Of a stretch of DNA of 64,000 nucleotides, positions 21,530-51,262 are shown one piece after another (within the stretch, counting starts at the first letter, position 1; each line of letters opens with the position of its first letter). Both the position numbers and the translations under genes were made by a program. The stretch is from the NCBI GenBank assembly GCA_951406725.2, contig OX597827.1:31558001-31622000 (forward strand), given 5' to 3'. Origin of the DNA: Octopus vulgaris. Taxonomy: Eukaryota. Under the pieces are notes generated by a model. The model ran no database searches, was not told where the DNA came from, and saw only the letters and a list, made by a program, of their open reading frames with translations.

Positions 21530-21569
<40 letters not shown>

Positions 21570-21881: not shown

Positions 21882-21925
<44 letters not shown>

Positions 21926-23643: not shown

Positions 23644-23675
23644 CTATAAATATATATATATGCATGCATATATAT

Positions 23676-24258
23676 CGTGACGCATATTTGCCATTTGAAT
23701 ATGGCTAACCCCTAAGGGTGGATGCTACTGTAGTTTGTAGCCCCAGGAAGATATCTCCTCCAGCTGGCTATAGACACACTATCTGTGTCCTCTCAGTATT
23801 TGTGAAGGGGAGTCATCCTCCCCGTCTTCAACTCATGATACAAATGGCAAATATGCGTCACGATGTGTTACCGCTACTGTTTATAACTTGCTCTGTGATT
23901 TATCATTGTTTGATTTCACTTTTTCAATATCAGTGTCAATCGACACTGGAAAAAGTATATGTATTTGTGAAGGGATCTGACTTCACGTCGACAACCATGA
24001 TTGTCACACGCTGATGAAAGGTAAACACCTTGAAACTCGGGTCCGTGTGTATCATGAGTTGAAGACGGGGAGGATGACTCCCCTTCACAAATACTGAGAG
24101 GACACAGATAGTGTGTCTATAGCCAGCTGGAGGAGATATCTTCCTGGGGCTACAAACTACAGTAGCATCCACCCTTAGGGGTTAGCCATATTCAAATGGC
24201 AAATATGCGTCACGATGTGTTACCACTACTGTTTATAACTCGCTCTGAAATTTATCAT
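23676..24258 (+). mobile_element. Non-coding HHR element: inverted arm + terminally redundant 352-nt unit, inserted in (TA)n
   Basis: 23676-23841 is the reverse complement of about 24048-24213; 23841-23907 repeats directly at 24193-24258. Confidence 0.85.
24005..24049 (+). ncRNA. Canonical type-I hammerhead ribozyme
   Basis: cacacg-CTGATGA-AAGGT aaac ACCTT-GAAAC-TCGG-GTC-cgtgtg: 6-bp stem I, 5-bp stem II, GUC cleavage triplet. Confidence 0.88.
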
Positions 24259-24385
24259 TATATATATGTATATATATATATATATATGTATATACATATA
24301 TATACACACATATATATATATATGTAAATATATATATATAAATACATATGTGTGTGTGTATATATACATGTATGTATGTATATAT

Positions 24386-24446
<61 letters not shown>

Positions 24447-24483
24447 GATGTATTTGTTTCAAGACAATCCTAAATATACATAT

Positions 24484-24540
<57 letters not shown>

Positions 24541-25029
24541 CACACACACACACACACACAAAGGAAATACTACACCAGATATTGAGTACATTGAGTTCAC
24601 CTCATATCTACAGACTATTGGAGCTATTCTCTGAAACCTACATTAAATCTAAACAACATGCCTCTCACAGTTGTCTGGAATATTTACAGAAGACTACTTC
24701 AAAACATAACAGTTTACCTTCACAAGATCATATGTTTAAAATTCTATGTATACCTAGGAGTACATTGGGTTATGTTTCAAAATGTTTGAGTAATATTCTA
24801 GGAAAGTTAGGTGGTTTTAGATTAAACTGAAAACAAACTAAAAACAACTACCTAACACACATTCTGCAAATTTAATCATTACAAAGGATGGCAGCTACAA
24901 AAATATTTTTCTTTAATTCAGTACATAACTCCTTACATACAGGAACAAAATTTGCTTAGTGAAGTGCAAATCCAGGTCCCAAATTTTTTGCAAATCCCCC
25001 TCCTCCTCATCATCCCCACCACCACCACA

Positions 25030-25520
25030 ACTATCGTTTAATGTCTGATTTCTCTGCTGGCATAGGTTGGACAGTTTGACTGAGGACTGGCAAGCCAAGA
25101 GGCCACACCAGGCTCCAATCTATTCTGGCAAGGTTTCTACAGCTGGGTGCCCTTCTTAACACCAACCACTCCGAGTGTAATGGGTGCTTTTTACGTGCCA
25201 CCAGCCTGGGAGCCAGTCAGGTAGCACTGGCATTGACCACACTCAAACGGTGCTTTTTATGTGCCACCGGCATGGGAGCCAGTCTGGCAGCACTGGCATC
25301 GACCACACTTGAATGGTGCTTTTTACGTGCCACTGGCACAGGAGCCAGTCTGGCAGCACTGGCATCGACCACACTTGAATGGTGCTTTTTACGTGCCACT
25401 GGCACAGGAGCCAGTCATGTGGAACTTTCATCAAACATATTCGAATGATGCTTTTTATGTGCCACTGGCACTGGAGCCAGTCAGGCGGAGCTACTGGCAT
25501 CGATCATGTTCAGATGTATT
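25030..25520 (-). mobile_element. RTE 3'-UTR-derived element with ~65-bp internal tandem modules; related copies at about 7460-7850, 10712-10975, 13730-13890, 20320-20425, 27005-27410, 32045-32390, 39090-39600, 61228-61680, 63712-63898
   Basis: Shares ggcgttaggaagggcatccagctgtagaaa...gacgttaaa(tga)n with the 3' UTR following the RTE ORF at 51860-52270. Confidence 0.8.
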
Positions 25521-26174
25521 TGTGCCTCCTAAACCTTGTCTATAAAAAAACTCGTAAAATTGTTGCAGGGATGCTCATGACCCCTGCACCCTATTACAAT
25601 CATTTGCTCTAACTCTGTACAGTTGTTGAGATTTATATTTGAATGACAGGCCCTTGCTTTTTGTTAAAGAACAAGACATATTTCACTCCCTAATAACCCC
25701 TTCCGCTCTTTTTCAGGCAAGGTGAACAAGGTTTAGTAAAAACGTGTAGTTTAGTGGTTAGAGTATTTGGCTCACTATCATAAGTTCAACTTCTAGCAGT
25801 GTGTTAAATCCTTGAGCAAGACATTTTATTACACATTGCCTCAGTTCACTCAACTGTATTTCAAAAAGTTAGCTTTATTACATTCTGTGTCACACTGAAT
25901 CTTCCAAAGAACAACGTTAAGGAGATGCATGCCACTTGCATTTTTCATTTTTTTTTTACTTGTCTCAGTCATTTGACTGTGGCCATGCTGGAGCATCACC
26001 TTAAAGGGTATTAGTTGAAGAAATCGACCACAAGACTTATTCTTTGTAAGTCTAATACATATTCTATCAGTCTCTTTTGTCAAACAACTATGTTATGAGG
26101 ACATAAACACACCAGCATTGGTTGTCAAGCAATAGCAGGGGGACAAACACAGACATGCACACATATACACACAA

Positions 26175-26239
<65 letters not shown>

Positions 26240-27971
26240 AATATATATACACACACACACACACAACAGGCTTCTTCTAGTTTCTGTCTGCCAAATCCAC
26301 TCACAAGGCTTTGGTCGGCCCAAAGCTGTATTAGAAGACAGATGGCCAAGGTGCCACAGAGTGGGACTGAACCCAGAACCATGTGGTTTGGAAGCAAGCT
26401 TCTTACCACACAGCCACTCCTCTGCCTATGTTAATTTCACCAGCAGGCTGTTCTGTTGATTGGATCAACTCATCATCATAACTGACAGAGGACCTCTAAA
26501 GCAACAGCTTTCTTATAAGAACCGTTCGCTTTTGCAAGATTGTAAGAAAGGATGATTAATTCACTGAAGTCCTATACCCCTGTATCACTTTATTGGCTAG
26601 ATTTTAAGAAGTGGTTATACATCACTGGTCACAATGTGTTTCCTTGCAATATCGTACCTTTCAAATGATGCCACATTGCCAATTAGGTGGACAAGTAAAG
26701 ATTCCCCCTAAATGGAAGCATAGTCGGTCTGGGAATCAAAATCAATAATCTTGTCATTGTTGGATCACCACCCTAACTATTTGGTCATGCACTTTCACTA
26801 AGATGCATATATGACGCTAAAGAGTCACCACACCTTGGCTTATTAAGGTAAGAGTTACTCATACAGCTACTTGACACAAACAATGAAGTCAAAACGCAAA
26901 ATTGAAGCATGATTTTCACCATACATAGCTACTGTGCTGACTGTCATATGACACATCTACTAGACTAAACCGTTGACTTGGCTTTCACCCATGGCTCATA
27001 TTGTAAAGTGGTTGGCATTTGGAGGGGCATCCAGTTGTAAAAACATTGCCTTGGTTGGTGCCATGTAAAAAACAGTCCTCTCTGTGGAGTGGTTGGTATT
27101 TGGAAGGGTACCCAGCTGTAAAAACCTTGCTTTGGCTGGTGCCATGTAAAAAACACTGTCCTCTCTGTGGGGTGGTTGGCATTTGGAAGCTGTAAAAACT
27201 ATGCCAAAACTGATCTTACCTGGGCTGGTGCCATGTAAAAAGCACTCAGTCCTCTCTGTGGGAAGGGCATCCAGTTGTTAAAAATCCTGCCAGAACAGGC
27301 ACAGAAGTCTAGTGTAGTCTTCTGCCTGGCCAGCTCCTGTTAAACTCTCCAACCCATGCCAACATGGAAAGCAAATGTTAAACAATGATGATGATGATGA
27401 TGATGATGATGAAGATACAGCTGAGAAATGAACCTGAATTCTTTGACCTCACCATTCTCCTCCAATCAATCAGCAATTTAATCCACATTGTTTCTATAAA
27501 ATGAATGGATTTTTTAAGAATGCCAGAAACAACACAGTTTACAACCTGTCTCCATGTCCTTCAAATCTCAGGCTGTTCAAGTCCCACAAACGTGAAACCA
27601 GTTAAGTGTGTTGATATTAGTATAAATAAATCTTCTTATAAACTCTCAGTGCATTTTCGACTACTTTTATTTCTTTTATACTACTACTGGTATAGATTAG
27701 TGGCTATATTTTATATATATACATGATCAAAACAGAATCGAAAGAAACTGGGGGGGGGGGGGGCTCTACATCAGCAAGACTTATATTCTGTAGTAAAATC
27801 AATGAAAAGAAATCAGTGAACTTGCCGTGAGGAGCGGAGCAACCAACACCACAGACAGAGTTTGTCTTCAGGGAAAAGTTGAAAGGAAAGAATTTAATGA
27901 AACACAGCAGACTTTTGCACTGCACTTTTTACCAATTTTCCTGTATGTATATGAATGTGTGTGTACATACA

Positions 27972-28007
<36 letters not shown>

Positions 28008-28403
28008 GTATAATGTATATACTCTTTTATTCTTTTACTTATTTCAGTCATTTGACAGCGGCCATGCTGGAGCACCGCCTTTAGTCAAGGAAATCGATCC
28101 CAGGACTTATTCATTGTAAGCCGAGTACTTATTCTATCAGTTTCTTTTGCCGAACCGCTAAGTTACAGGGATGTAAACACACCAGCATCGGTAGTCAAGC
28201 GATGTTGGGAGGGGTGGGGACAAATACAGACACTTATATATACACATGATGGGCTTCTTTCAGTTTCTGTCGACCAAATTCTCTGAAAAGGCTTTGGTCG
28301 GCCCAAGGCTATAGTAGAAGACACTTGCCCAAGGTGCCACACAGTGGGACTGAACCCCTGGTAAGCAAGTTTCTTACCACACAGCTACTCCTGTGCCTGT
28401 TTA

Positions 28404-28434
<31 letters not shown>

Positions 28435-29162
28435 GTAAATATATATATGTATACACACACATACATGCATATATGCATACATACATATATATATATATAT
28501 ATATGTATGTACACACACACACACACACACATATATATTATATGCATGGCCTAGTGGTTAGGCTGTTGTACTCACAACTGTTAAATTACAGGTTCGATTC
28601 CCAGACTGGAATTGCTCCAGTCCCCCTTCAATCAAGTGGGGTATTAGGCCTGCCCACCTGGCCAGTGGGGTGGCGTCATTTGAAGGCTAAAACAATGCAA
28701 AATCACATTGTGACTAGTGATGTGCAACAACATCTGATAGCCTGGTCGGTCGTGTGATCATGTGACATGTGATATATACATATATATATATAAATATACA
28801 TGGATAAAATCTTTATAAGAATTTATCAAGTAGTCAGCATGAAAAACCTCAAAAAGGAAAAAATTATAATTATTCCCTTTAAATATATTTTTTTATATTA
28901 AGGATATTAATACATATAAATGCCCCTAATATAAATAAAAAAATAAATATACATGTATATATATATACATGCAAACATGTACATACCTACATACATGCTT
29001 GCATACATACATCCATTCAGAAATACATACATATATGCATGCATACATACATCCATCCATCCATACATATATATAGCTTGATAGCTAGAAAGCTACATAC
29101 ATATATACATACACTCATGCATATAGACATGCACATACATATATACACATAGAGGAAACAAC

Positions 29163-29349
29163 AGGTCTGATAAGAGCTTCCAGGATAAAAGCCTACAATC
29201 TTACATAGTTGAAGATATCAGTCACCCTGTTGTATGAATCTTTTCTCAAAACTTCTGAGAGCAATGACCACAGTTAGAAAACAAAAGCTCTAGAATCCAC
29301 TATGGAATTTCAACAGCTTTTGTATCCTGGCTAGAAATTCTCATAATCT
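29163..29349 (+). ncRNA. Decayed hammerhead-like motif with very long stem II
   Basis: aggt-CTGATAA...ccaggataaaagc ... gcttttgtatcctgg..-GAAA-ttctca-TA-atct; downstream sequence resembles the 22.36-22.49 kb segment. Confidence 0.4.
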
Positions 29350-30333
29350 AACAAAGAATTTTCAAAGATTATTACTTAAATACTTCGTTTTCGTATCTGA
29401 TTTGCAAGATTCTTCATATTGAAGAAAAAATATATAAATAATTAACAAGTGGAAATTGAACCGGTGAGTGTGTTAGATGATAAAGCATTGAGACAGTTAT
29501 CCCCAGATAGAACAAAAATTACTTTAATACTTAGAAACATAGCCAAGTGTGCCATTAATTACAGGTACAAATTTAAGCATTTAATCTGGGTAAGTTGTTA
29601 TATTTTTCAGTTTTATATAAATGTTCCAGACAACTATGTCAGACATTTTGCACCGGACCTAAGAACTCTCATAATATACCAAACAATACACACTACGTAT
29701 TAACCTTTTAGCATTTAAACCACTCACATTCAACCCAAATATTCTAGCTGTATTATGTTGAAACTGGCCAGATCTGGCTTATCACACCAACCCTACAACG
29801 TCGTTCTAAAAATAAAGTCTCAGAATTGATATTCCAAAGATACATATATGATTCATTCAAAACAATTGGAAATAAATAAGCATCACATTTGATAGAATAA
29901 TCTGAAAGCTAACTTGACTACTAGCTTTTCATAGAGATGGTGAACCTGAGTAACACATTTCAGCATTATATTCTTCAAAATATGTTAATATTCACACTCA
30001 TTCATATTTACTTAATGAACCAAACATTTTTTATTTTGGTAAATTCCTGCAAGGAATCATGCTAGATACTCTAAAATTCCAGATCATTACCCTGGGCTCA
30101 TACTTAATTTATCAACCCAAACTCAATATGCAGAGTCAGAAATAACACCACAAAGCATTCTTAACAAAGCCCTAATGATGGCTAATTCAATGTCATGTGG
30201 CTCTGTGGTAAGAAGCTTGCTTCCCAACCACATGGTTCTGGGTTCAGTCTTGGGCAAGTGTCTTCTGCTATAGCCTCAGGCTGACCAAAGTCTTGTGAAT
30301 GGATTCGGTAGCCAGAAACGGAAAGAAGACTGC

Positions 30334-30375
<42 letters not shown>

Positions 30376-30723
30376 CGTGTGTGTGTGTGTTTGTGTCTGT
30401 GTGTGCCTGTGTGTGTATGTGTGTGTGTGCGTGCATGTATGTGTGTGTGTGTATGTATGTATGTATGTATGTATGTATGATTGTATGTATGTATGTATGT
30501 ATGTATGTATGTATGTATGTATGTATGTATGTATGAATGTATGTATATTTCTGTGTGTTGTGTCTTTAGGTTTGTGTTTGTCCTCCCATCTCTGCTTAAC
30601 AACCAGTGTTGATGTGTTTGTGTCCCTGTAGCTTAGAAATTCGGCAAAAGTAACCAATAAAAAAGTACTAAGCTTAAAAAAAGGTAAGTTCTGAGATTGA
30701 ACTGTTCAACTAAGACTTTTCAA

Positions 30724-31440
30724 GAGTTACTAATAGTTTCTTGCTATAGAGACACTGTGATTAGGCAGGTTTTATAATGTGCCTTGTGTCTCCAAGCAAT
30801 CTTCAAGCTCAGGGCACATGGTTTGTTTTATTTGAAAACCAAGAGGCTGGTAGATGAGAAACCATGAGAAAAAACAAGAAGGTTGATACAGAAAGTGGAA
30901 TAAGAAAACAAAAGGTAAATTTAAATAGAAAAAGAAAGGAAAGAAAGAAAATTGTGAGTTATGCCCTCTTTGACTGTAGAAACTATAATTCATCTAGCTG
31001 GAGTAGAATAATTCAATGGTAAGGAGTTTAAAAGCATACAAGACAGTGGCTCAATCTGGAGAGGGTAGTGTTCTCCAAAGACAAAAGAAATTTGCCTGTG
31101 TGCTTTGCATTTCCTGAAAATTTCACATCTGGAATAAAGTAGTGTGGTGGAACTCTCAGATTTAAAAATGTGTGCTCTTTCAGCTACACATAAGTTGCAT
31201 CTCTTTGATCCATTCACATATGGCATATACTTCTCCACGATACTCCTCTTGACTGTATGTGTGTTCAGTTTGTTTTTAGACCCCATACATGGCTAGCAAG
31301 CTTAGTGGTTTTATTTTTACTAATGTGTCAGAAAGAAGACTGATAGTTTGCATAATGTCTTTTAAAGTTGATTTTGCATGAACTGACATAATTTTTCTCT
31401 TTCATTATATTTTCTAGAAGTACTGCTGTGACTTTGACCT
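30724..31440 (-). mobile_element. PLE 3' remnant: GIY-YIG C-terminus followed by a decayed HHR (30724-30810)
   Basis: FKRHYANYQSSF...PYVNGSKRCNLCVAERAHI; downstream TTGAAGA-ttgct..gagacac...gtgtctc..agcaa-GAAAC-tatta-GTA. Confidence 0.65.
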
Positions 31441-32440
31441 CATAAAACACTGAGTCTATCAAACATGCCTGATCTAGTGGGCAAGCTTTAGGGTTTCAAT
31501 AGTTACAACGGAGAGTGGGCTCTTGGTGAGGCTTACGAGTGAGAATGTCCATATATTATGTGCATGTGTATGTGTGTGCATGCACATATATGTGTGTATG
31601 AAACCAATTGGTGAAGTGACTGTTATAAGAATATCAAATTGTGTTTTAATAATAACACGCCAGCTCTATTAACCAATATATCAATGATTGTTTTTTTTTC
31701 TGACTCATGGATCTTTACACAACTATATATAATGTGCCTTTCATTCACTTCTGCCCTCATCTCTACCCATCCTGTACCCCTTTAGGAATTTAGCCACCCT
31801 TCTTTCCACCCTGATCTTCTGTCCGTATTCTCTCTTATACTCACCTTCTTGTACCTTGAGAGTACACTAAGGCACTTTGTCACTGCTATCTTTATATCTC
31901 TTCTACAGCAAGAAACCTGTGCTCATTCCTCTACTGTAATTTAAGCTCTCAGCGTTTGGTGTAAAGCCATCTCCCCACTCTCAAACACATCTCCATGCAA
32001 CTGAGGGTTTTCTTTCTTTTTCTTTGTCATCTAAATTACTTGGGAACCTCACTAGCACTGGCTCCCATGGCACACAAAAAGCATCATTCATGCGTGGGTC
32101 ACTGCCAGTGCCACCTAACTAGCTCGCCATGCCAGTGGCACGTAAAAAGCACTATCCGAATGTGGCCGATGCTTGTGCTGGCTGACTGGCTCCTGTGCCA
32201 GTGGCATGTAAAAAGCACCCACTTCACTCCCAGAGTGGTTGGCATTAGGAAGGGCATCAACTGTAGAAACATTGCCAGATCAGATTGGAGCATGGTGCAG
32301 CCCCCTGGCTTGCCAATCCCCAGTCAAATCATCCAACCCATGCAGCATGGAAAACGGATGTTAAACAATGATGACAATGATGATGATGATGATATATGTG
32401 TGAGTATATATATATGTCTATATATATATATATATATATA

Positions 32441-32497
<57 letters not shown>

Positions 32498-32612
32498 ATA
32501 TATATATATATGTATTTATATACACACACATATATATAATAGTGTATAAACAACTTAAGTATTTATACATGAAAGAGGTGACCTTTGATAGGACACTTTA
32601 CATGCTAGAAAG

Positions 32613-32655
<43 letters not shown>

Positions 32656-32658
32656 ATA

Positions 32659-33734: not shown

Positions 33735-33747
33735 TATATGTGTGTGC

Positions 33748-33792
<45 letters not shown>

Positions 33793-34111
33793 TATTTAAA
33801 AAATATTGATATAAAAAATATACATAAAATATACTACATGGAATATATAAAAATATATATAAAAATATATATATAATGAGCAAACTATAAAAATTAGTGA
33901 GAAAAAGGGAGATATACACATATTGGATGGCTGTTGACTCTCAAGAGCTCTTCTGCCCTTTGACGGGTTTTGTTTTTCATCCCACAGGGTGTCCAATAAA
34001 CACCCTCCTCACCAAGCAAACTTGGTGGGGTTGTTGGTTTAGTTGCCTATGGCCTAGCCATGTGACAAGTTATACTGGGTTACATGTTACCAGTAGCACT
34101 CGAAAGTGACC

Positions 34112-34943: not shown

Positions 34944-34944
34944 T

Positions 34945-34979
<35 letters not shown>

Positions 34980-36531
34980 TTATACACACACACACACATA
35001 TCTATATACAAAAATATGTATATATATATGTGTGTGTGTGTCTTTGTGTTGGTGTGTTTACGTCTCCATAATGTAGCAGTTGGGCAAAAGAGAGCGACAG
35101 AATAAGTACCAAGCTTAAAAAAAGAAAATAAGTCCTTGGGTCGATCCATTTGACTAAAATTCTTCAAAGCAGTGCCCCAGCATGGCCACAGTCCAATGAA
35201 TGATACAAATAAAAGTAAAATAATTTCCTGGGACAATAAATCAAAAACAAAGATCCTTTCCTTTGACTTTCAACACTAATTTATAAGATTTGTGTTCTTT
35301 ACATCTGCAATCGCAAAGGTTCCTGTTCCTTCCTACTCTAGGCACAAGGCCCAAGACTTTTGGGGGAGAGGGGAGCCAGTCAATTAGATTGACTCCAATA
35401 CACAACTGGTACTTAATTTATCAAAATGGAATATATAAAAATATATATATAATGAGCAAACTATAAAAATTAGTGAGAAAAAGGGAGATAAACAGTAAAT
35501 ATAAAATTACATATTGGATGGCCGTTGACTACTGCTGTACCTGACTAACATCACATCCACTCACTGCTGTACCCAACTAACATCACAGCTACCACTAACA
35601 TCACAGCCATCCAATGATAGAAAGTCAACCTCGGCAGAATTTGAACTCAGGACATAAAGACAGACGAAATACTGCTAAGCATTTCGCCCAGCATGCTAAT
35701 GTTTTTGCCAGCTCACCGCCTTAGATATTCTTATCTACTCGAGGCACAAGGCCTGAAATTTTGGGGAGAGAGGGCTAGTTGATTAGACTGACCCCAGTAC
35801 ACAACTGGTACTTAATTTATCGACCCCAAAAGGATGAAAGGCAAAGTCAACCTCGGTGGAATTTGAACTCGGTACGTAAAGACAGATGAAATACTGCTAG
35901 GCATTTCACCTGATGTGCTAACATTTCTGCCAGTTCACCGCCTTCACAAGGGCTCCTATTAATAAACTAATCCTTTGAGAGTAAGGTGAAACTTTTGGCC
36001 GATTTCATTGCTTGTTCATTTAAGTGGATTTTGATGGTTTTAAATGTTAGGCAGAAACCAAAGGAGATAATACAAACAGCATAATCAATGTGCACCGAAA
36101 GTCGATTACAGAGTCTCAACAATAAAGATGTTGGTGATTGGATTGCCGTTGACAATGGTATTAAATGAACCTGAAATTCTTCAGATCAGATTATCGACAG
36201 TGAGGTTAATCCTGAAGATCGAGATGCAGTGCTTTGTTTCGATGACAATGATGATAAAAACAAAATAACTGCAATGCAGAAGTCTTGGACTAAAGCACCA
36301 AATATTTATAATGATTATTCTTTGTAATATAGGAAAGAATTCAAATTCTTATCAGCAACAAAACGATTTAAGCATAAGTCCCTAGACTGTGGCCATGCTG
36401 GGGCACCGTCTTGAAGCATTTTAGTCAGGTAACTCCACCTCAGTTCTGGTTATTTCTTTGTAAAGCCTGCTACTTATTTTGTCAGCCGCTTTAGCCGAAC
36501 TTCTATGTTACAGGGAGATAATCATACCAAA

Positions 36532-37935
36532 ACTAACATCACAGCTACCCAATGCTGCACCTGATTAACGTCACAGCTACCCACTGCTGTACCTGACTAA
36601 CATCACAGCCACCCACTGCTGTACCTGATTAACGTCACAGCTACCCACTGCTGTACCTGATTAACGTCACAGCTACCCAAAGCCATACCTGATTAACGTC
36701 ACAGCTACCCACTGCTGTACCTGATTATCATCACAGCTACACACTGCTGTACCTGACTAACGTCACATCTACCCACTGCTGTACCTGATTAACATTAGAG
36801 CCACCTGATGCCATACCTGATTAACATCACAGCTACCCACTGCTGTACCTGACTAACATCACAGCTACCCACTGCTGTACCTGATTAACATTACAGCTAC
36901 CCACTGCTGTACCTGACTAACATCACAGCTACCCAATGCTGTACCTGACTAACATCACAGCTACCCACTACTGTACCTGACTAATGTCACAGCTACCCAC
37001 TGCTGTACCTGACTAACATCACAGCCACCCAAAGCCATACCTGATTAACGTCACAGCTACTCACTGCTGTACCTAACATCGCAGCTACCCACTGCTGTAC
37101 CTGATCAACATCACAGCCACACAATGCCATACCTGATTAACATCACAGCTACCCACTGCTGTACCTAACAAACATCACAGCTACCCACTGCTGTACCTGA
37201 TTAACATCACAGCCACCAAAAGCCATACCTGATTAACGTCACAGCTACCCACTGCTGTACCTGACTAAAATAACAGCTACCCACTGCTTTACCTGACTAA
37301 CATCACAGCTACCAACTGCTGTACCTGATTAACATCATAGGCACACAATGCCATACCTGATTAATATCACAGCTACCTACTGCTGTACCTAACAAACATC
37401 ACAGCTACCCACTACTGTACCTGATTAACATCACAGCCACCCAATGCAAGACCTGCTTAACGTCACAGCTACCCACTGCTGGACCTGATTAACATCACAG
37501 CCACCCAAAGCCATACCTGATTAACGTCACAGCTACCCACAGCTGTACCTGACTAAAATAACAGCTACCCAATGTCACACCTGATTAACATCACAGCTAC
37601 CCACTGGTGTACCTGATTAACATCACAGCTACCAAATGCTGTACCTGACTAACATCACAGCCACCCGATGCCATACCTGACTAACATAACAGCTACCCAC
37701 TGCTGTACCTGATCAACATCACAGCCACACAATGCTATACCTGATTAACGTCACAGCTACCCACTGTTGTACCGGATTAACATCACAGCTACCCACTGCT
37801 GTACCTAACAAACATCACAGCTACCCACTGCCATACCTGATTAACATCACAGCTACCCAATGCAAAACCTGATTAACATCACAGCTACCCACTGCTGTAC
37901 CTGACCAACATCACAGCTACCCACTGCTATACTCG
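36532..37935. repeat. 32-bp minisatellite, about 44 copies (acctgattaacatcacagctacccactgctgt)
   Basis: Period read directly (catcacag at 36601, next at 36633); recurring variant units; orphan units at about 35531-35615. Confidence 0.95.
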
Positions 37936-39768: not shown

Positions 39769-40090
39769 TGGAGGTGCAATGGTCCAGTGGTTAGGACAGT
39801 GGACTTGCAATCGTAGGATCACAGTTTCGATTCCCAGACCGGGTGTTGTGAGTGTTTATTGAGTGAAAACACCTAAAGCTCCATGTGGTTCTTGCAGTGG
39901 GTGGTGGCAAACCCTGCTGTACTCTTTCACCACAACTTTCTCTCACTCTTTCTTCCTGTTTCTGTTGTACCTGTATTTCAAAGGGGCCAGCCTTGTCACA
40001 CTCTGTGTCACACTGAATCTCCCCAAGAACTACATTAAGGGTACACATGTCTGTAGAGTGCCCAACCACTTGCACATTAATTTCACAAGC
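39769..40090 (+). mobile_element. tRNA-derived SINE family C; partial relatives at about 9443-9600, 17560-17860(-), 25745-25940, 44900-45040(-)
   Basis: tRNA-like head tggtccagtggttagg...gtttcgattccc; shared body gggccagccttgtcacactctgtgtcacactgaatctcccc. Confidence 0.7.
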
Positions 40091-42090
40091 ATCATCATCA
40101 TCATCATCATCATCATCATTTAACGTCCGCTTTCCATGCTAGCATGGGTTGGACGGTTCAACTGGGGTCTGGGGAGCCCGAAAGTTGCACCAGTCCAGTC
40201 AGATCTGGCAGTGTTTCTACAGCTGGATGCCCTTCCTAACGCCAACCACTCCGAGAGTGTAGTGGGTGATTTTATGTGCCACCGACACAGGTGCCAGACG
40301 AGGCTGGCAAACGGCCACGCTCGGATGGTGTTTTTTATGTGCCACCGACACAGGTGCCAGACGAGGCTGGCAGACGGCCACGCTCGGATGGTGTTTTTAT
40401 GTGCCACCGACACAGGTGCCAGATGAGGCTGGCAAACGGCCACGATCGGATGGTGCTTGTTACATGCCCACAGCACGGAGGCCAGTCGATGCAGTACTGG
40501 CTACGGCCACGTTCGGATGGTTTTCTTGTGTGCCACGTGCCACCGGCACTGGTACCACAAAGATACAAATTCCATTGATGTTCATCTATTTTGATTTGTT
40601 TTGATTTGATTTTCACTTGCCTCAACAGGTCTTCACAAGTGTCACAAGAAGGAAGGTATGCACAGGTGGACTGACTACGTCCCAGGTAGGGGCCATGGGT
40701 TATGGCCTGACTAGTCTTGCCGGGTCTTCGGATGGTGTTTTTATGTGCCACCGACACAGGTGCTAGATGAGGCTGGCAAACGGCCACGATCGGATGGTGT
40801 TTGTCATGTGCCCACCGCACTGACTACAGCACTGATGGATTTCTTGTGTGCCACAGGCACTGGTACCACAAGATACAAATTCCATTGATGTTCATCTATT
40901 TTGTCTATTTTGATTTGATTTGATTTGATTTTTTGATTTTCACTTGCCTCAACCGGTCTTCACAAGTGTCACAAGAAGGAAGGTATGCACAGGTGGACTG
41001 ACTAGTCTTGCCGGGTCTTCGGAAGGTGTTTTTATGTGCCACCGAAACAGGTGCCAGATGATGCTGGCGAACGGCCATGATCGGATGGTGTTTGTTACGT
41101 GCCCACAGCACGGAGGCCGGTCGATGCGGAACTGGCTACGGCCATGTTCGGATGGTTCTCTTGTGTGCCACCGGCACTGGTACCACAAAGTGTGTGCCAC
41201 CGGCACTGGTACCACAAAGATACAGATTCCATTGATGTTCATCTATTTTGATTTGTTTTGATTTTGATTTTGATTTTCACTTGCCTCAACAGGTCTTCAC
41301 AAGTGTCACAAGAAGGAAGGTATGCACAGGTGGACTGACTACGTCCCAGGTAGGGGCCATGGGTTATGGCCTGACTAGTCTTGCCGGGTCTTCGGATGGT
41401 GTTTTTATGTGCCACCGACACAGGTGCTAGATGAGGCTGGCGAACGGCCACGATCGGATGGTGTTTGTCATGTACCCACAGCACGGAGGCCAGTCGATGC
41501 GGTACTGGCTACGGCCACTTTCGGATGGTTTTCTCTTGTGTGCCACCGGCACTGGTACCACAAAGATACAAATTCCATTGATGTTCATCTATTTTGATTT
41601 GTTTTGATTTGATTTTGATTTTGATTTTCACTTGCCTCAACAGGCCTTCACAAGTATCACAAGGAGGAAGGTATGGACAGGTGGACTGACTACGTCCCAG
41701 GTAGGGGCCATGGTTTATGGCCTGACTAGTCTTGCCGGGTCTTCGGATGGTGTTTTTATGTGCCACCGACACAGGTGCTAGATGAGGCTGGCGAACGGCC
41801 ACGACCGGATGGTGTTTGTTATGTGCCCACAGCACGATGGCCAGTGATGCGGTACTGACTACGGCTACGTTCGGATGGATTCTTGTGTGCCACCGGCATT
41901 GGTACCACAAGCGGTACTGACTACGGCCACGTTCGGATGGATTCTTGTGTGCCACCGGCACTGGTACCACAAAGATACAAATTCCATTGATGTTCATCTA
42001 TTTTGATTTGTTTTGATTTTCACTTGCCTCAACAGGTCTTCACAAGTGTCGCAAGAAGGAAGGTATGTACAGGTGGACTGACTACGTCCC
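40090..42090 (-). mobile_element. Multimerised RTE 3' UTR (five tandem blocks of roughly 310-410 bp) ending in a (GAT)n tail
   Basis: Block ggtaccacaaagatacaaattccattgatg...caggtggactgact recurs at about 40550, 40860, 41205, 41550 and 41960; homologous to 51860-52270. Confidence 0.85.
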
Positions 42091-42365
42091 GGCTGTGCAA
42101 AATGCTTTGTGGTATTTCGTCCATCTTTACATTCTAAATTCAGTTTCCACCGAGGTCAACTTTGCTTTGCTTTCAGGATTGATGGAACAAGTATCAGTTG
42201 ATCACTGGGGTTGATATATTTTATTTGCCCACTCCCACGAAATTGCTGGCCTTGTGCCAATATTTGAAACCAATTTATCTATCAAGTACCAGGTAAATAA
42301 TGGCAGAGTTATTTTTACTAAATTCTTCATTGCTTTTAAAATTGATTGAAACAAAGGCAGAGTAT

Positions 42366-42689
42366 GGAGTAAAGATTATTTGCCAACATAACATGGCAGT
42401 CCTGGTTTAGGACGAATGTTGCTGCAATTTAGCCCCAGGAAATATTGCCTCCAGCTGGCTATACAACATGATCTATGTCCTTATATTTTCAAACAAGGAC
42501 ATCTAGCACCCCCGCTCAGCTCAAAACAATATCTGTTGGGGTGCTAGATTCCCTTGTTCGAAAATATAAGGACACAGATTGTGTCATATAGCCAGCTGGA
42601 GAAGATGTCTCCTGGGGCTAAGTTACAGCAACATTCATCTTAAACCAGAACTGCCATGTTATGTTGGCAAACAATCTTTACTTTACTCC
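42366..42689. repeat. Inverted repeat (arms ~150 bp) related to the tail of the 352-nt HHR element
   Basis: 42366-42513 is the reverse complement of about 42538-42689; contains tagccccaggaa...ctccagctggcta...tgtcc. Confidence 0.85.
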
Positions 42690-43422
42690 AAAGTGCTGTT
42701 GCTGAATATCTCTCGTTGTGAGATTTACAAATAGTAATTTTCTAAAGGCAGGGTATTTTAACAGAATTATGGCAACAAAAAGGATAAAAGAATAGAGAGA
42801 ATGTTGGGTAGAGAAGACTCTTTAACTCATACCAAGGAGAAAGGAGCCACCTTGGTGCCACTGCAATAGGGAATTGGACCCAATACTCTGTAAAATGGTT
42901 GGTGAACAGAGGCAATGAAGAATAGAGAAAATTCTTTAGTATAGTTGAGAATATGGTCACTTCTCTAATGTTCTTCCGTAACATGCAGCCAGAGTGAAAA
43001 GGTTGACAATAAGAAAGACATCCAGCCATAGAAACCATGTGTTGTACGAGTAAGATTAGTTCCATAATCTTTCCAAGACGGCAGGAACTTCAAATAAGCT
43101 TGGACCAAGCAAACCTCTCCAACTGATCTTCCATCTTTTACTTGTTTTAGTCATGAGACTGTGGCCATACTGGAGCACTGCTTTGAAGAATTTTAGTCGA
43201 ATGAATCAACCCCGGTTTATGTTTATCTTCAGCCAGGTACTTATCCTCTTTTACTAAACTGCCAAGTTACAGGGATGTAAACACATAAACAACAATTGTC
43301 AGTAAGTGGTGAGGGACAAACACAGACACATGTACATACATACATACATACACATACACACACATATATATATATAAATAAATATATATATATATATATG
43401 AATATGTATGTATATATATCTA

Positions 43423-43468
<46 letters not shown>

Positions 43469-43540
43469 CTATCTATCTATATATATATATTTTTTATTTT
43501 ATCTAGTTTCAGCTCACGAGCTGTGGCCATGCTGGGGCAC

Positions 43541-43579
<39 letters not shown>

Positions 43580-43582
<3 letters not shown>

Positions 43583-43960
43583 CTACAGGAGAAATAAAAA
43601 CCAAGGCAGAACGAGTATCTCAAGACATTTAGAATATAATTTGATTAGGGTAAGGTGAATTTGAAGTTGTACAGCTGCTTCTAGTATAACCCAAGTGTTT
43701 GGTTAGCATATCCGTGCACTGGGTATTCCGTCATTAGAGACAAGGTAGGGATATTTTACACAAGGAAAATTTACAGTTTACAAGGAATAAAATTCACAGT
43801 TTATAAGGAATAAATAAGAAGAATAAAGTAGTATTCCTTTCTGTTGAAGAGCATATACGAAACGTAAAAGACTTCCTCACTTTCCCAAGCATCAAACTAA
43901 TACACCTGCTTGTTGTTCATACATCTGTCTCCATCTTTGTTTTCCTGTAAATTTCAGCTA
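43580..43960. mobile_element. (TA)n-flanked pair of PLE-like tails with decayed HHRs (about 43665-43742 minus; 43837-43872 plus)
   Basis: Minus: CTAATGA...GAAGC-agct-GTA. Plus: cttt-CTGTTGA-agagc..-GAAACGT-A-aaag. Confidence 0.6.
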
Positions 43961-46236
43961 TATATATAAATAGACATACATATATGACGGGCTTCTTTCA
44001 GTTTCTGTCAACCAAATCCACTCGCAAAGTTTTGGTTGGCCTGAGGCTACAGGAGAAGAAACTTGTCAAAGATTCCAAGCAGTGGAACTGAACCCAGTTC
44101 CATGCAGTTGGGAAGCAAACTTCTTACCACACAGCCATGCCCGCACCTATGTCATCAACCTACATTTCATTAAATGGCTCCACATAAAACAAAAATAAGA
44201 CGCTTTATAAACAAGTACTTCTAATGCATGTTTGTGTGTGTGTCTGTGTGTGTATGCATGTGTGTGTGTGCATGTTAGATTGTGTTGCAAGTCTCAGCAT
44301 GAATAAACAAATATATAATTAAATAAATAAACAAACAAAAGAATACTTATTAAAATTTACTTAATAACATGCAACAAAGTTGATTAAATAACGGGTCTGA
44401 CCTTAATCTAATTATGTCTCTGTAATGTAATATGGACATATTTATGGCCTCGTAATCCTTCGCTCATATGAAATAAAGGGTTGTTTGCATACAAGTGCCA
44501 TAAAATATAGAGAGAGACTAACTTACTATCTTTTACATTCAACTGGTGAAATATCTTGAATTTGACTATTGTTAACTTTATGGTCTTTATGGCCTTCCAT
44601 ATTTAACTGGTGACACAGAATATCTTGAATATAACTAGTGGTGACTTTGTGGTCGTCCATATTCAATTGGTAACAGAAAATATTTTGAGCCCAATTATTT
44701 GGCACCTCCGAGACCCCCTTCGGTCATGAATGACCATGGGATTGCACCTAGAAAGTTACCCTCCAAGGCACAAGTCTGGGCAAGGTTGTTTATAGAAGAC
44801 CAGCAGTCGCCCATGCATACTGGCCTCCCCTCTCCATGCCACCAATGTTATCCAAGGGAAAGGCAAAGGCCGATACAACATGGCATCAGTGACGTTACGA
44901 CTCATTTCTACAGCTGAGTGAACTGGAGCAACGGGAAATAAAGTTTCTTGCTCAAGAACACAACATGCATCGGTTGGGATTCGAACTCACAACCTCGCGG
45001 TCGTAAGATTGTTGCTCTAGCCACTGAACCAGGTGCCTTCACTTTGGCACCTATAAACTCCCATATACTATGGTAACCAGTTGTAACATAAAATATGTTT
45101 AAATCCAGTAAATGGTGAAAAGGGTCCTCCATACTTAATTGGAGATACAGTCTAGATTTAATCTGTGGTGAGTTTTATGGTCATCCATATTCAACAGGTG
45201 GCATACAAGATTGTAAATCCATAAAACAGTATGTTAAGTCTCCCATATTTAACTGATTACATAAAATAATGCCTATGGTCTCTCATATTTAATTAATGAT
45301 GAGTGGCTGTGTGGTAAGTAGCTTGCTCACCAACCACATGGTTCCAGGTTCAATCCCACTGCGTGGCACCTTGGGCAAGTGTCTTCTACTACAGCCTCAG
45401 GCCAACCAAAGCCTTGTGAGTGGATTTGGTAGACGGAAACTGAAAGAAGCCTGCCGTATATATATGTGTGTATATGTGTGTGTGTATGCGTACGCGTGCG
45501 CATATGTATATGTTTCTGTGTCTGTCTTTGTCCCCCCCCCCCACCATCGCTTGACAACTGATGCTGGTGAGTTTACGTCCCCATTACTTAGCGGCTCAGC
45601 AAAAGAGACTGATAGAGTAAATACTAGGCTTACAAAGATTAAGTCCTGAGTATGATTTGCTCAGCTAAAGGTGGTGCTCCAGCATGGCCGCAGTCAAATG
45701 ACTGAAACAAGTAAAAGAATAAAGAATCCAATCAGTCTCCCTTAATTAATTAATTAATTAATTAATTAATGACATAAATGATCTTAAATCCAAACAGAGG
45801 TAAATTTATGATCCTTTATATTTAATTGGAGGATCATAAAATTGTTTAATTTGTGAATTAAATTGGTGACTAAGAATGTCTGAAATGAAATTGAGAGTAA
45901 CTTGAGAGTAGGGGTTCCCAACCACATGGATTTTAGTTCAGTACCATTGTGTGGTACATAGAACAAGTGATTGCCCCAGCATGGCCGCAGACACATGACT
46001 AAAACAAGTAAAAGAATAAAAAAATATATATTTTTTTCATTTACTTGCTTCAGTTATTTGACTGCAGCCATGCTGGAGCATCACCTTTAGTCGAATAAAT
46101 TGACTCCATGACTTCTTCTTTGTGAGCCTAGTACTTATTCTATCAGTCTCTTTTGCCAAACCGCTAAGTTATGGGGACGTAAACACACCAACATTGACTG
46201 TCAAGTGATGAAGGGGGGACAAACACAGACACACAA

Positions 46237-46299
<63 letters not shown>

Positions 46300-46319
46300 T
46301 ACATATATATATATATCAC

Positions 46320-46478
46320 CAGGATAGATTGGTAGCCACTACACATCCTTTATTTTCTCTCCTTGTTTCTTTCTGTGTCCCTTTCTGTAGAAGAGTGTAG
46401 GCTTGAAACATAAAAGACTTTTTCAATTCCTGAGCGTTATACTAATACATCTGTTTGTTTTGTACACCACCTGTCTTG
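46320..46478 (+). mobile_element. Solo 3' tail of the Neptune PLE family with variant HHR (46381-46418)
   Basis: Homologous to the reverse complement of about 56060-56220; cttt-CTGTAGA-a-gagt gtag gctt-GAAACAT-A-aaag; begins next to (TA)n. Confidence 0.7.
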
Positions 46479-47276
46479 TGTGTGAAGCTTCTTTCAGTTT
46501 CTGTCTACCAAATCCACTCACAAGGCTTTGGTCAGCCTGAGGCTATAGTAGAAGATACTGAACCCAGGACCATGTGGCTTGGAAGCAAGTTTCTTACCAC
46601 ACAATCACTCCTGTGCCATATATATCAAATCATTGCTATCATATTTTTTAATGTTTCTCTTCCATGCTGGCATTGGTTGGATGGTTTGACAGGAGCTGAT
46701 GAGGTAGAGGGCTTTGTTGTGCTCCAATGACTGTACTGAGTGCATTGTTTTTACTGCCCAACCACTCACACGTGTATGTGTGTGTGTGTGTGTGTCTGTG
46801 TCTCTGTGTGTGCGCATATGCATGTATGTATGTAATCCTCATTTTTATGCCCATTTTACCATGCCTGCCTCAGGTTGGAGAGAATTATATTGAGGCCTCT
46901 TCTCTCCAGACAAATGCCCTTCCTGTCACCAACCCTCATCTGTTTCCAAATAAAGTGATATTTCCCCATGACCAGACAAATTTTCAGGGAACATTACGAA
47001 AAGACGACACTGCTTGCATGTCAGTGACACAACTTTACAACTATCATACTATATCAAAGCAAGGAGAAAGTGCCACCTGCCTCTCATATATACATATAAA
47101 ACAGGCTTCTTTCAGTTTCTGTCTACCAAATTCACTCAAGGATTTTGTTGGCCTGCAGCTATAGTAGAAGACACTAGCCCAAGGTACCACACAGTGGGAA
47201 TGATCCTGGAACCATGTGGTTGGAAAGCAAACGTTTTACCGTACAACCATGCCTGCACCTATTAGGCCACACCTGC

Positions 47277-47334
<58 letters not shown>

Positions 47335-47798
47335 GTATATACACACATATTCATACACATACATTATAAACACATCTATTTATCTATCTATCTATCTGTC
47401 TATCTGTCAATCAATTTATCTACCTATCTATATACACACACAGATATTTGCGTAGATATATATATATATAGAAGCATTCAAGAACACATACACATATGAT
47501 GGTAATGACGACGACGACGACAGCATCTTTACAAATGATTGCAGTCTTGTTTCTCCATTGTCATCCTCTCCGCATCCATGACTTCATAAATGAGGTTTTA
47601 GATAAGCTACAGATCTGCAGTTTGTAGCACAAGTGTTGCATGACAGTTGTGCATATATATACATACATAAATTAAATATGTATGTATGTACGTATGTATG
47701 TGTGTGTATGTATGTATGTATGCATGTATGTATGTATGTGTATATATATATATATATACACACATACATACATATATATACACATACATACATATATT

Positions 47799-47840
<42 letters not shown>

Positions 47841-47879
47841 TACATACACATATATACACATACATACATATATATATAC

Positions 47880-47930
<51 letters not shown>

Positions 47931-48074
47931 AAGTATGGGGGTTTAGTTCACAGGTGATCTAAACAATTAGGTATACTAGGTAAGTACTGTAATGGATTAC
48001 TGGGGCTGCAAGGTTATAGCTGAGACAGTAGTTATGGAGCCATTGCAAATTTCCAATGCAGTGGATAGTTAAAC

Positions 48075-48592
48075 AAGACGTCAAACATTAAGGCAAGGCT
48101 AACATCTCAATTCATATACAATATTATTATAGGAAGAAATTCAAAATCTTACAGCTGTTTCTGGGATATCCTCGAGTATGGGCTATTCCATCATCAGAGA
48201 CAAATTGGGGAGAAAATATATGGAAAATTAGAATAGAATATATCAATAAGATGACAACATAGAGGAAGGGAGTAAAAGAATAAGGAGATGGAAAGAGAAA
48301 AAAAAAATGAGGCATAAAAGTTCATAGTTCAACTTTCCGAAGTTATATACCATTCTTTTACTTCCATCTCCTTATTCTTTTACTCCTTTTCTCTATGCTG
48401 TCATCTTATTGATATATTCCATTCTCATTTTCCATATTTTTTCTCCCCAATTTGTCTTCTGATGACGGGAGTATGGGAATATCTCATACTCGAGGATATT
48501 CCAGAAACAGTTGTAAGATTTTGAATTTCTTCCTATAATAATATTGTATATGACTTGAGATGTTTCCCTTGCCTTAATGTTTGACATCCTGT
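48075..48592. mobile_element. Inverted-repeat element with two outward-facing HHRs (48146-48201 minus; 48454-48519 plus)
   Basis: Arms about 48075-48295 and 48360-48592; gtct-CTGATGA-tggaata..tatccca-GAAAC-AGCT-GTA-agat. Confidence 0.8.
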
Positions 48593-49547
48593 TTATCAAT
48601 TTTATATACATATATATATATATACATATATATATATTTCATGGTAGCATGGAAAACATTGGATGTAATAACAAATGAATTATCTCCTAACGACTTCTTA
48701 AAAGTAAATTCCTCCTCAAGTGTTTTGTTCAATGTTCCAGTTTCCATTTCTACCATAATAAAATTAGCAAGAAAAAGGAAATTTAAAATACTGTTTTCAT
48801 CACATTATCCTTATTACAAGTTTCAATAACAATAAAAAGAAGAGAGAGTTAGCAGTGAAGTCAAATGGTAGAAATGGCAGACAGAGTTTATATAACTAAT
48901 CTTTAGCACACAGTAGATGCATCATGTCACCATATGAGTTTTCTCCTCTGTAGCAACAGGCAGTTGCAAGGGAAACAATTCTAGAAAAAATGCAGTTACT
49001 AAAGGTTAACAAGGTAATAGTGAATGCTCAAAGTTGAAGATCAAGGCGTCAGTGAAGGAAGTCATTAATATATTCCAAAATAATATTTCTAATGAATAAA
49101 TTAGATTATCCATGTAATCTTTAAGTCTATTTGGTTGTTTGCCTCTTTGACAATAGACAGAATTGTCTTGCTAGAATCCATATTACTACAATTTTTTTTT
49201 TCTTTTTGTGTTATTAGCAAAAAGAAAAAAAAACATGGTTTTTTTTATATACACATTTGATTAAATTTTCTCTCTTTTAATTTTTCTTTTAATCAAAGAC
49301 TCCTTAATATTCATACATATCTACCATTTCAATCTAGTTGGATCTCTTCAGTACAAAGTAGTTTGGAAATAGAAATCTCGATTAAATTATTATCATTTTT
49401 ACAGGAAGAGGAGAAAGTACCAGAAGGTTTGTACCAGGAGTACTTCCTTAGGATAAAAACACCACTATTCTCAGTACATTTGCAGTATAAGGGAGAGATA
49501 AATAGGTAGACAGATATGAAGAAATAATGAAGTAGTAGTAGTAGTAT

Positions 49548-49598
<51 letters not shown>

Positions 49599-50419
49599 CA
49601 GTAGCAGCAGCAGCAGCAGTAGTAGTAGCAGAAGTAGTAGCAGCAGCAGCAGTAGTAGTAGCAGCAGTAGCAGTAGTAAACTCAACATGGAATTTAGATA
49701 CATGTGCAGATGTTACCAGAACAATGCAGTTATCTATGTGCTTCAGTGGAAAGGGTTAAACTCCATGGCAGTCACTGTGCCACCAAAGGCACTTAGTCCC
49801 TTCAGATAAAATGTCAACTACAGAGACAGAACCTGTTTGATGATCAAAGACAACAATATGCAACACATTTTAAAGGTTATATTTAGTGACATTACGATAA
49901 GCCAATGTGTGTGTACTTAACTCTTTCTGTCTGTATATATGTGTGCGTGTAAGTATGTGCATGCAAATATACATTTAAAAGTTAATGCACACACACACAC
50001 ATGTATATATCAATATATATATATATATATAGGCACAGGAGTGGCTGTGTGGTAAGTAGCTTGCTTACCAACAACATGGTTCTGGGTTCAGTTCTACTGC
50101 ATGGCACCATGGGCAAGTGTTTTCTACTATACCCTCAGGCTGATCAAACCCCATTGTATATATATGTGAGTGTGTGTGTTTGGGTGTCTGTGTTTATCCT
50201 CCCACCATCGCTTGACAACTGATGGTGGCGTGTCAAAGTATTCGTAATCTAGTGGGTCAGCAAAAGTGACCGATAGAATAAGTGATAGGCTTGCAAAGAA
50301 TAAGTCCTGGGATCGATTTGCTCAACTAAAGGCGATGCTCCAGCATGGCCACAGTGAAATGGCTGAAACAAGTAAAAGAATAAAAGAATATACATAAATA
50401 TATATATAAACAATTACAT

Positions 50420-50590
50420 CATGGAAAGTGTTTATAAGCCATTTAAAAGCACACAAAAACCGTTAGATTCACTTCAACCTTTAAATTTAAAAAGCGATGG
50501 AAATAATTTGACAAATTAAATTTAAATGTTGAAGTGAATCTAACAGTTTTTTGTGTGTTCTTAAATGGCTTATAAACACCTTCTACGCTG
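50420..50590. repeat. Short foldback (arms ~65-80 bp) between (TA)n tracts
   Basis: gtgtttataagccattta...ttaaatttaa mirrored by ttaaatttaa...taaatggcttataaacac. Confidence 0.8.
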
Positions 50591-50665
50591 CAATTGTTTT
50601 TATTTCAGTACATGATCTAGGTCAGGTCAAGTGCATCACTGTAATGTGTATATATATATATATGT

Positions 50666-51262
50666 ATCAGAGATATTAAATTTCTAAATATCTCATAGAG
50701 ATATGTACGGTGGTGGGGCAATAGAATAGTTGTATACTGTCAATTTAACGTGACAGTAGGGGATTACACCACCACTGTTTAGCCCTAGGAAGCATCGACA
50801 CTTCCTGTCGGCTTCAACACATTTCCTGTGTCCTTATATATTTACAAAGGGGAGACAAATATCCCCAACAGCTAGGCTTGCATCTACAGACACGCATGTT
50901 TCAGGATCTTTGCCCATCATTGGTCTAGAGTAGCAGAAGCCTGCTAGGTGCAGATATCTGTCTCGACTTTGTAAATATATATATCTAATTTTCAGTGAAG
51001 TTTATTCACTGATCACCAAAATCAGAAATATTAAATTTCTAAATATCTCATAGAGATATGTACGGTGGTGGGGCGATAGAATGATTGTATACTGTCAATG
51101 TAACATGACAGTAGGGGATTACACCACCGCTGTTTAGCCCTAGGAAGCATCGACGCTTCCTGTCGGCTTCGACACATTTCCGACAGGAAGCGTCGATGCT
51201 TCCTAGGGCTAAACAGCGGTGGTGTAATCCCCTACTGTCATGTTACATTGACAGTATACAAC
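50666..51262 (-). mobile_element. Terminally redundant 355-nt unit + inverted arm, decayed HHR at about 50884-50930, in (TA)n
   Basis: 50666-50825 repeats at 51021-51180; 51181-51262 is an inverted copy of about 51083-51165; minus strand aga-CCAATGA...GAAAC-atgc-GT-G-tct. Confidence 0.8.

Follow-up and report, generated by a model that had tools for sequence, protein, structure and literature searches.

In published sources, the hallmarks of Penelope-like elements (PLEs) are a partial tandem arrangement, an inverted 5′-truncated copy, a tail at one end, and a bias toward (TA)n (PMC8557442), and a palindromic helix III is described for the hammerhead ribozymes of both PLEs and retrozymes (PMC4209133). 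For the anole PLE Poseidon (PAc), reverse transcriptase (RT) starts in vitro at two internal sites that match the genomic ends and the tail; its protein, a predicted dimer, nicks both strands of AT-rich DNA and requires RNA from +20 to +172 of the open reading frame (ORF), where the hammerhead cut falls at +26 (PMC11167929). Animal retrozymes of the type without long terminal repeats (LTRs) have been proposed to be non-autonomous PLE derivatives (PMC7229834; bioRxiv 10.64898/2026.07.22.740005). Here we describe a 64,000-nucleotide stretch of Octopus vulgaris DNA (contig OX597827.1, positions 31,558,001 to 31,622,000; hereafter the window) that contains three insertions, A, B and C, sharing a double hairpin designated H2+H3. 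H2+H3 is the most sequence-conserved part of these three diverged ~350-nt elements. It is a real, conserved and probably functional cis-acting RNA module in a known class of element, and by analogy with PAc we assign a probability of about 0.58 to the reading that it forms the core of a larger RNA fold and is likely a binding site for a Penelope-type RT/GIY-YIG protein supplied in trans, placed before an RT start just downstream.

The motif is captured by the pattern GGACAYAG N11-14 AGCC N4 GGA N7-14 TCCTRGGGCTA, derived from its own copies, which finds five full copies grouped in the three insertions (Table 1) and partial copies at 51135-51145 (-) and 51201-51211 (+), exactly where an earlier note on this DNA had placed them. 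The pattern has no match across 100 shuffles, a control that is partly circular since the pattern was drawn from these copies. A covariance model made from the three tailed copies recovers the same seven (five full and two partial); next in its ranking come A's partial repeat upstream (E 0.015) and two matches at E near 1. The TGTC block that the earlier note had treated as universal is literal in only three of the five full copies; C has TGTGTT, and in the decayed minus arm of B its place is taken by GGACATAG. Pairwise identity across H2+H3 is 0.89 (A-B), 0.71 (A-C) and 0.68 (B-C) versus 0.46 for shuffled sequence and 0.44-0.56 in four flank segments, so that conservation does exceed that of the flanks, contrary to what the earlier note had named as refuting its proposal. 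Comparison with the hammerhead core, for which A-C identity is 0.66, indicates that the motif is sequence-constrained at least as strongly as the ribozyme core. The distance from the predicted cut to the motif start is 57 nt in A and 56 nt in C, in keeping with the ~50 nt first estimated. The description of the motif as lying downstream of a hammerhead in three elements is accurate for A; the core in C is decayed (CCAATGA for CTGATGA), and B has no hammerhead.

The element type is already known and the motif is in no Rfam family, as had been suspected from the outset. The whole window gave no Rfam match at gathering thresholds, and targeted scans to E=10 returned no ribozyme family and three and two weak, unrelated matches. 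The small self-cleaving ribozymes already known, like other families in Rfam, are likewise small hairpins with invariant blocks, yet none matched in these scans. The whole-window list ranked by E-value (150 of 267 matches listed) was set aside as microsatellite and palindrome noise, and K-turn and kissing-loop readings were rejected by inspection against the consensus. Scans of viral contigs gave no match to the motif; 31 metagenomic loci, mostly GC-rich, were treated as chance because none of the 31 gave a score with the covariance model. ARAGORN found no tRNA gene in the window and thus no tRNA-derived head of a short interspersed nuclear element, a search that decayed heads could escape. 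A literature search found no description of the motif or family, which might be contained in Repbase, Dfam, subscription papers or some supplements that lay outside it.

Judged by their sequence, A, B and C represent three subfamilies of ~350-nt hammerhead elements that have no ORF and whose anatomy is Penelope-like. A partial tandem forming a pseudo-LTR has a period of 352 nt in A and 355 nt in C. All three insertions carry an inverted 5′-truncated copy at the 5′ end and a tail on one end only, which measures 44 nt in A and 55 nt in C, the end of B being approximate. (TA)n lies on both flanks at A and C, not at B. The type I hammerhead, with a short palindromic helix III, is intact in the core of A, where most of the depth in Logan contigs (described below) carries 24040 G>A and thereby makes stem/loop III palindromic. 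There is no open frame for RT and GIY-YIG in A, B or C, and the Pfam RT and GIY-YIG matches of the window are elsewhere. Together, the PLE hallmarks, the lack of an open frame, and the type I hammerhead in A indicate non-autonomous elements of PLE/retrozyme type. Animal non-LTR retrozymes share with A and C a type I hammerhead, an ORF-less monomer of a few hundred nucleotides (350-390 in mussel; 352 and 355 here) with GC below 45% (0.42 in A, 0.40 in C), and a highly self-paired predicted circle. Retrozymes occur as dimers or longer arrays with a hammerhead per unit, whereas no such array is found in the window, where A and C amount to 1.2 and 1.45 units, have a single core apiece, and bear inverted arms and tails of the PLE type. 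Neither a conserved downstream motif nor a helix bracketing a start site is reported for animal retrozymes in the accessible text of PMC7229834 and bioRxiv 10.64898/2026.07.22.740005. The Neptune, Naiad and Hydra clades of PLEs resemble A and C in (TA)n targeting, and in Hydra elements a canonical hammerhead with a short symmetric stem III is located close to the 3′ end (PMC8557442). Naiad_Adux and Naiad-3_Chem share only CCTRGGGCTAA with the motif and were rejected as homologs because the 5′ hairpin context differs and Naiad_Esco lacks the sequence at the same place. At the 3′ ends of Naiad_Obim and Naiad_Ovul the hammerhead half-cores stand in swapped order, GAAAC before CTGATGA (PMC8557442 supplement), an arrangement that could represent a circularly permuted hammerhead.

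The predicted folds of A and C follow one order of domains: a hairpin D1, a hammerhead-capped rod that ends before GGACAC, H2, H3, and a long-range helix, P4, enclosing a further hairpin, H5; in A and B a variable hairpin H4 additionally lies inside P4. Folded as circles and compared with 40 shuffles, the elements reach z scores of -6.8 (A) and -7.1 (C), and A and C share this architecture though their identity outside the motif and core is near background. P4 comprises 8 bp, has its 3′ strand in the tail, and encloses the short 3′ end described below. It was predicted unprompted by RNAalifold from a sequence-only alignment. In register, 8/8 pairs form in B and in the upstream unit of C, and A forms 6/8 in the tailed unit and 7/8 with its upstream repeat; the majority variant 24225 A>G adds one P4 pair in A. 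Six of the eight P4 pairs are changed on both sides among the subfamilies, and controls with slid partners pair 31-49% of cells versus 91% in register, in an alignment that includes two short arms lacking the P4 partner. The chance per family of finding a partner in a shuffled tail is 0.01-0.02 for 7/8 and 0.0002-0.0009 for 8/8. H5 also shows a few two-sided changes. That pairing in the motif is kept despite sequence change, as the earlier note had proposed, holds for the inner H3 stem, where alone within the motif a few pairs differ on both sides; H2 and outer H3 do not vary across subfamilies and are so paired by invariance, with no covariation, and it is P4, outside the motif, that changes far more. 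The rod, H2, H3, P4 and H5 are elements of a predicted fold supported by compensatory changes. Also predicted in A is a GGGGAG..CTCCCC hairpin, H1 (24067-24083), which appears only after cleavage (p 0.97-1.0) and excludes the rod, making a cleavage-dependent switch between the two possible; the variants G>A at 24070 and C>T at 24080 are compatible with both structures.

The genomic ends of the arms bear a fixed relation to this fold. In each of the three insertions one direct arm extends into the tail and one inverted arm ends 14-18 nt past H5 (16 nt in A, 14 nt in B, 18 nt in C). H3, at the least, is present on every one of the seven arm segments. The suggestion in the earlier note of an RT-recognition or priming signal is therefore the best fit by analogy, whereas its suggestion that the motif is the portion copied into the inverted arm does not hold, the arm of A spanning about +5 to +173 of the cut and that of C beginning inside H3. 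In A and C the tailed arm extends across the hammerhead, and none of the three short arms does so. That the short arm of A stops ~5 nt from the cut is a hint (n=3) that the template may have been cut RNA.

Near-identical sequence was found in sequencing runs carrying four organism labels, none of them recorded as RNA, and Logan contigs from four runs were aligned to 23843-24262 (4458, 4045, 1674 and 42 contigs placed). The last 42 derive from run X14, whose RNA nature is only guessed, and were not used as evidence of expression. Among the 24 of 582 loose contig ends that were listed, those at 24213 and 24216 run on into (TA)n in three of the four runs (29 and 24 in X1; 30 and 25 in X4; 19 and 12 in X15), coinciding with the short end of the A inverted arm. 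Other listed ends, behind 24167/24169, lead into a different H4 hairpin and then the start of a GCCA.. hairpin, resembling the B minus arm. The 40 of 80 variants that were listed comprise 22 at unpaired positions, 10 that keep pairs (six of them as three double changes) and eight that break pairs; the five inside H2+H3 are three loop changes and two that keep pairs. The double changes, 23934/23945 (T>C with A>G, in D1), 23996/24056 and 24018/24031, each have members at depth 44.9 on a single contig of X14. Summed contig depth is several-fold greater across 24095-24206 than in the hammerhead part, which is a hint only, depth not being copy number.

PAc resembles A, B and C in having a hammerhead followed by an RNA zone required for activity, two internal RT starts that define the ends and the tail, and AT-rich targets. 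The PAc zone is coding, lying within the first 172 nt of the ORF, and no conserved fold is defined for it in the accessible text of PMC11167929, whereas the zone in A, B and C is non-coding and its fold covaries. Read through this analogy, the two classes of ends would be RT starts, the short start would lie in the loop closed by P4, and H2+H3 would serve as the protein anchor, about 60 nt upstream of the short start. The PLE protein may then nick (TA)n DNA and prime at one of two internal RNA sites, either in the P4-closed loop (the short end, +168 to +173) or 44-55 nt further along (the tail end). In A and C a cDNA primed at the tail end may continue back across the hammerhead of an RNA that is uncut, multimeric or circular; a second cDNA, started at the short site from the opposite DNA strand, would give the inverted arm, and the two cDNAs would join via a few bases of microhomology. 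A more specific and tentative version, to which we give well under even odds, sees here an RNA module that defines the template of a telomerase-related RT. H2+H3 would be the anchor, and P4, with the PLE tail as its 3′ strand, would hold out the first start loop and in this way fix two starts. One start would be used on each DNA strand by a PLE dimer, yielding one tailed and one tail-less inverted arm, the pattern observed in all three insertions.

Several observations weigh against the protein-binding reading. The tails of 44-55 nt are longer than the 30-40 nt published, the first PAc starts fall about 85-92 nt after the cut as opposed to ends at about +170 and +220 here, and the flanks of B are not (TA)n. 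An autonomous partner bearing the motif was not found: the model gives no match in the decayed PLE at 56.6-59.8 kb. Three other hammerhead-like loci in the window (four cores) are without the motif. It is also missing from the 3′ ends of all six novel Hydra consensuses and of Naiad_Obim, Ovul and Omin in the PMC8557442 supplement, so that the motif appears to be family-restricted rather than a universal PLE signal. With only three independent aligned subfamilies the covariation counts have no statistical power: the observed seven pairs with two-sided changes were reached in 51/500 shuffles, which is not significant, and H2 and outer H3, which never vary, say nothing for RNA structure and suit a DNA-level signal equally. 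In the predicted fold of cut A RNA a competing helix keeps the probabilities of outer H3 (0.03-0.43) and P4 (0.36) low, and P4 of the full C unit is shifted out of register by 3 nt. Finally, 8 of the 40 listed variants break predicted pairs (five mid-rod, one in D1, one in a tail helix, and one at 24040, the last an artefact because the core was folded non-catalytically).

The invariance of H2 and outer H3 is what gives weight to the view that the motif acts as DNA, either as an internal promoter of the pseudo-LTR or as a site for the GIY-YIG endonuclease, with the hairpins incidental. An internal promoter in the Penelope 5′ region is mentioned in PMC8557442, and the D. virilis endonuclease required a tail fragment as DNA, as recounted in PMC11167929. 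We nonetheless consider this unlikely, given that inner H3 pairs change on both sides among subfamilies, that loops vary while none of the five variants listed within H2+H3 breaks a pair, and that the motif sits within a covarying RNA fold. The motif might instead have been swapped among co-mobilised subfamilies through template switching or gene conversion and have no special function beyond general RNA folding. The jump in A-B identity from 0.44-0.55 on either side to 0.89 in H2+H3 would be expected of such exchange, and both junction breakpoints of C lie inside the motif; the prospects of this explanation are rather poor, however, in that identity is raised in all three pairs including A-C and B-C, the spacing to the cut, P4 and H5 is maintained, and differences are confined to loops and the inner stem.

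A role in handling cut or circular RNA, through binding of a host factor for ligation, stability or transport in place of the PLE protein, is suggested by the position of the motif at the open end of the rod that unites the two cut ends and by the view that retrozyme circles are ligated by a host ligase (PMC7229834). Yet the motif is 56-57 nt from the ligation junction and is fixed in position relative to the genomic 3′ ends, set by RT starts, and we regard a host-factor site as quite improbable; as for the circularisation signal that had been entertained earlier, the long rod joining the cut ends would serve that purpose better than the motif. The accompanying idea of a second catalytic motif, which would here be a self-cleaving ribozyme of an undescribed class, draws on the invariant short blocks flanking an asymmetric internal loop and on an identity comparable to that of the hammerhead core. 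It fares badly and is very improbable: besides the negative Rfam ribozyme scans, inspection revealed neither a pseudoknot whose complementarity is conserved nor a nested double one of the hepatitis delta virus type, the internal-loop letters of H3 are not the same in A/B as in C, and no genomic ends cluster inside the motif among the loose ends listed. The ORF of the anole PLE starts inside its hammerhead, and an ATG lies inside the hammerhead core of A and C, which raises the question, also posed in the earlier note, of whether H2+H3 is a remnant of N-terminal coding sequence of a PLE ORF. Each of the nine frames tested across the motif contains 2-8 stops, and the anchor spacings differ by 1-2 nt (GGACAC to AGCC is 21, 20 and 20 nt among subfamilies), so a coding remnant is rejected as having next to no likelihood.

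Table 1. Coordinates, in the numbering of the window, of the features of elements A, B and C.
Element	Feature	Position	Strand	Remarks
A	Whole element	23674..24260	+	Inverted short arm and 1.2 direct units, 352-nt monomer; TA-rich microsatellite on both sides
A	Inverted arm	23674..23842	-	Copy of 24048-24216; begins about 5 nt past hammerhead cut, stops at short end
A	H2+H3 of inverted arm	23738..23790	-	
A	Upstream partial unit	23838..23907	+	93% identity with 24190-24259, period 352
A	D1 hairpin	23931..23948	+	CAGTG..CACTG; common to A and C
A	Predicted rod	23961..24094	+	Extended stem I (23961-24010 with 24044-24094), hammerhead cap; ends right before GGACAC
A	Type I hammerhead core	24011..24043	+	Predicted cut after 24043
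A	H2+H3	24100..24152	+	H2 24100-24118; H3 24120-24152, 4x3 internal loop
A	P4, 5′ strand	24159..24167	+	
A	H5 hairpin	24185..24200	+	GCCA-N8-TGGC; C counterpart GTCA-N8-TGAC
A	Short 3′ end	24213..24216	+	+170 to +173 from cut
A	Tail	24217..24260	+	44 nt; P4 3′ strand at 24224-24232
B	Whole element	about 42368..42735		Right end approximate; fold-back lacking a hammerhead, with a short minus arm and a tailed plus arm
B	H2+H3 of short arm	42430..42480	-	H2 decayed
B	H2+H3 of tailed arm	42570..42620	+	
B	P4	42626..42704	+	42626-42633 with 42697-42704, 8/8 Watson-Crick; encloses H4/H5 and short end
C	Whole element	50666..51270	-	1.45 units of 355-nt monomer (-) and short inverted arm (51180-51270, +); TA-rich flanks
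C	Tail	50666..50720	-	55 nt; P4 3′ strand 50715-50708
C	H2+H3	50780..50833	-	
C	Predicted rod, decayed hammerhead	50835..50981	-	Core about 50923-50889, predicted cut after 50889
C	D1 hairpin	50992..51012	-	
C	Upstream partial unit	51021..51181	-	Starts inside H2; P4 51129-51122 with 51070-51063, 8/8 Watson-Crick
C	Inverted short arm	51180..51270	+	Starts inside H3, ends 18 nt past H5 in TA repeats

The window as a whole is repeat-rich, with GC mostly 33-46% and many microsatellites and fold-backs. The flanks of A (23477-23590 and 24331-24476) have in common a ~50-nt direct repeat of mixed microsatellite and carry inverted copies of TTTCAAGACAATCCTAA, which occurs nowhere else in the window; these shared repeats suggest a rearranged, duplicated target. 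The decayed PLE at 56650-59780 (-) has RT-side frames together with a GIY-YIG match at the C terminus (PF01541; E 0.0035, below cut-off), before which stands a CxxxxCxxC finger of the kind described for Neptune/Nematis, with (TA)n on its 5′ side and a long polypyrimidine stretch 3′. The fold-back at 48070-48595 contains two outward-facing hammerhead-like cores (48150-48197, -, and 48459-48512, +) without the motif; its stem III is of the ACAG/CTGT type, like that of Hydra-clade hammerheads, and its plus arm ends ~100 nt past the cut in TA repeats. Further hammerhead-like cores belong to other repeat families, at 105-140 (+), at 61070-61104 (+), with (TA)n about 95 nt downstream, and at about 56150-56120 (-, decayed). 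Fold-backs at 61844-62363, 54688-54969, 50404-50603, 59857-60382 and 20712-22403 have an arm end adjoining (TA)n or another microsatellite and are possibly truncated PLE pairs of other families; an additional fold-back lies at 286-722.

Other repeats and candidate genes include an RT fragment (PF00078) of a long interspersed nuclear element (LINE) followed by a PHD-like finger (PF00628) at 53479-54541 (-). The segment 866-1320 (+), beside (AAT)n, we take from its motifs to be the 3′ end of a probable restriction-like-endonuclease LINE. A weak CRAL_TRIO_2 match at 15918-16313 (+; E 0.0008, below cut-off) is perhaps a host exon. Tandem arrays at 36531-37932 and 40321-42090 consist of a short-period C-rich minisatellite, with offsets in multiples of ~32 nt, and a repeat of ~340-nt period.

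Were the motif no more than a well-preserved stretch within a single abundant family of repeats, the finding would be an ordinary one. RNA recognition by PLEs, the choice of internal starts, and the formation of tails and inverted repeats have been named as the next task for the field (PMC8557442). Coding constraints mask a fold of this kind in elements such as PAc, and a non-coding 350-nt family, with saturated sequence and covarying helices, provides a minimal substrate with named pairs to mutate. That monomers without an ORF bear the signatures of a tail and an inverted arm is support for regarding animal retrozymes as non-autonomous PLEs. P4 is the most useful new point: it connects an RNA helix with the PLE tail and can be tested directly. 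Should the template-module reading be true, it would provide an RNA-structural cause for the PLE tail and the inverted pseudo-LTR.

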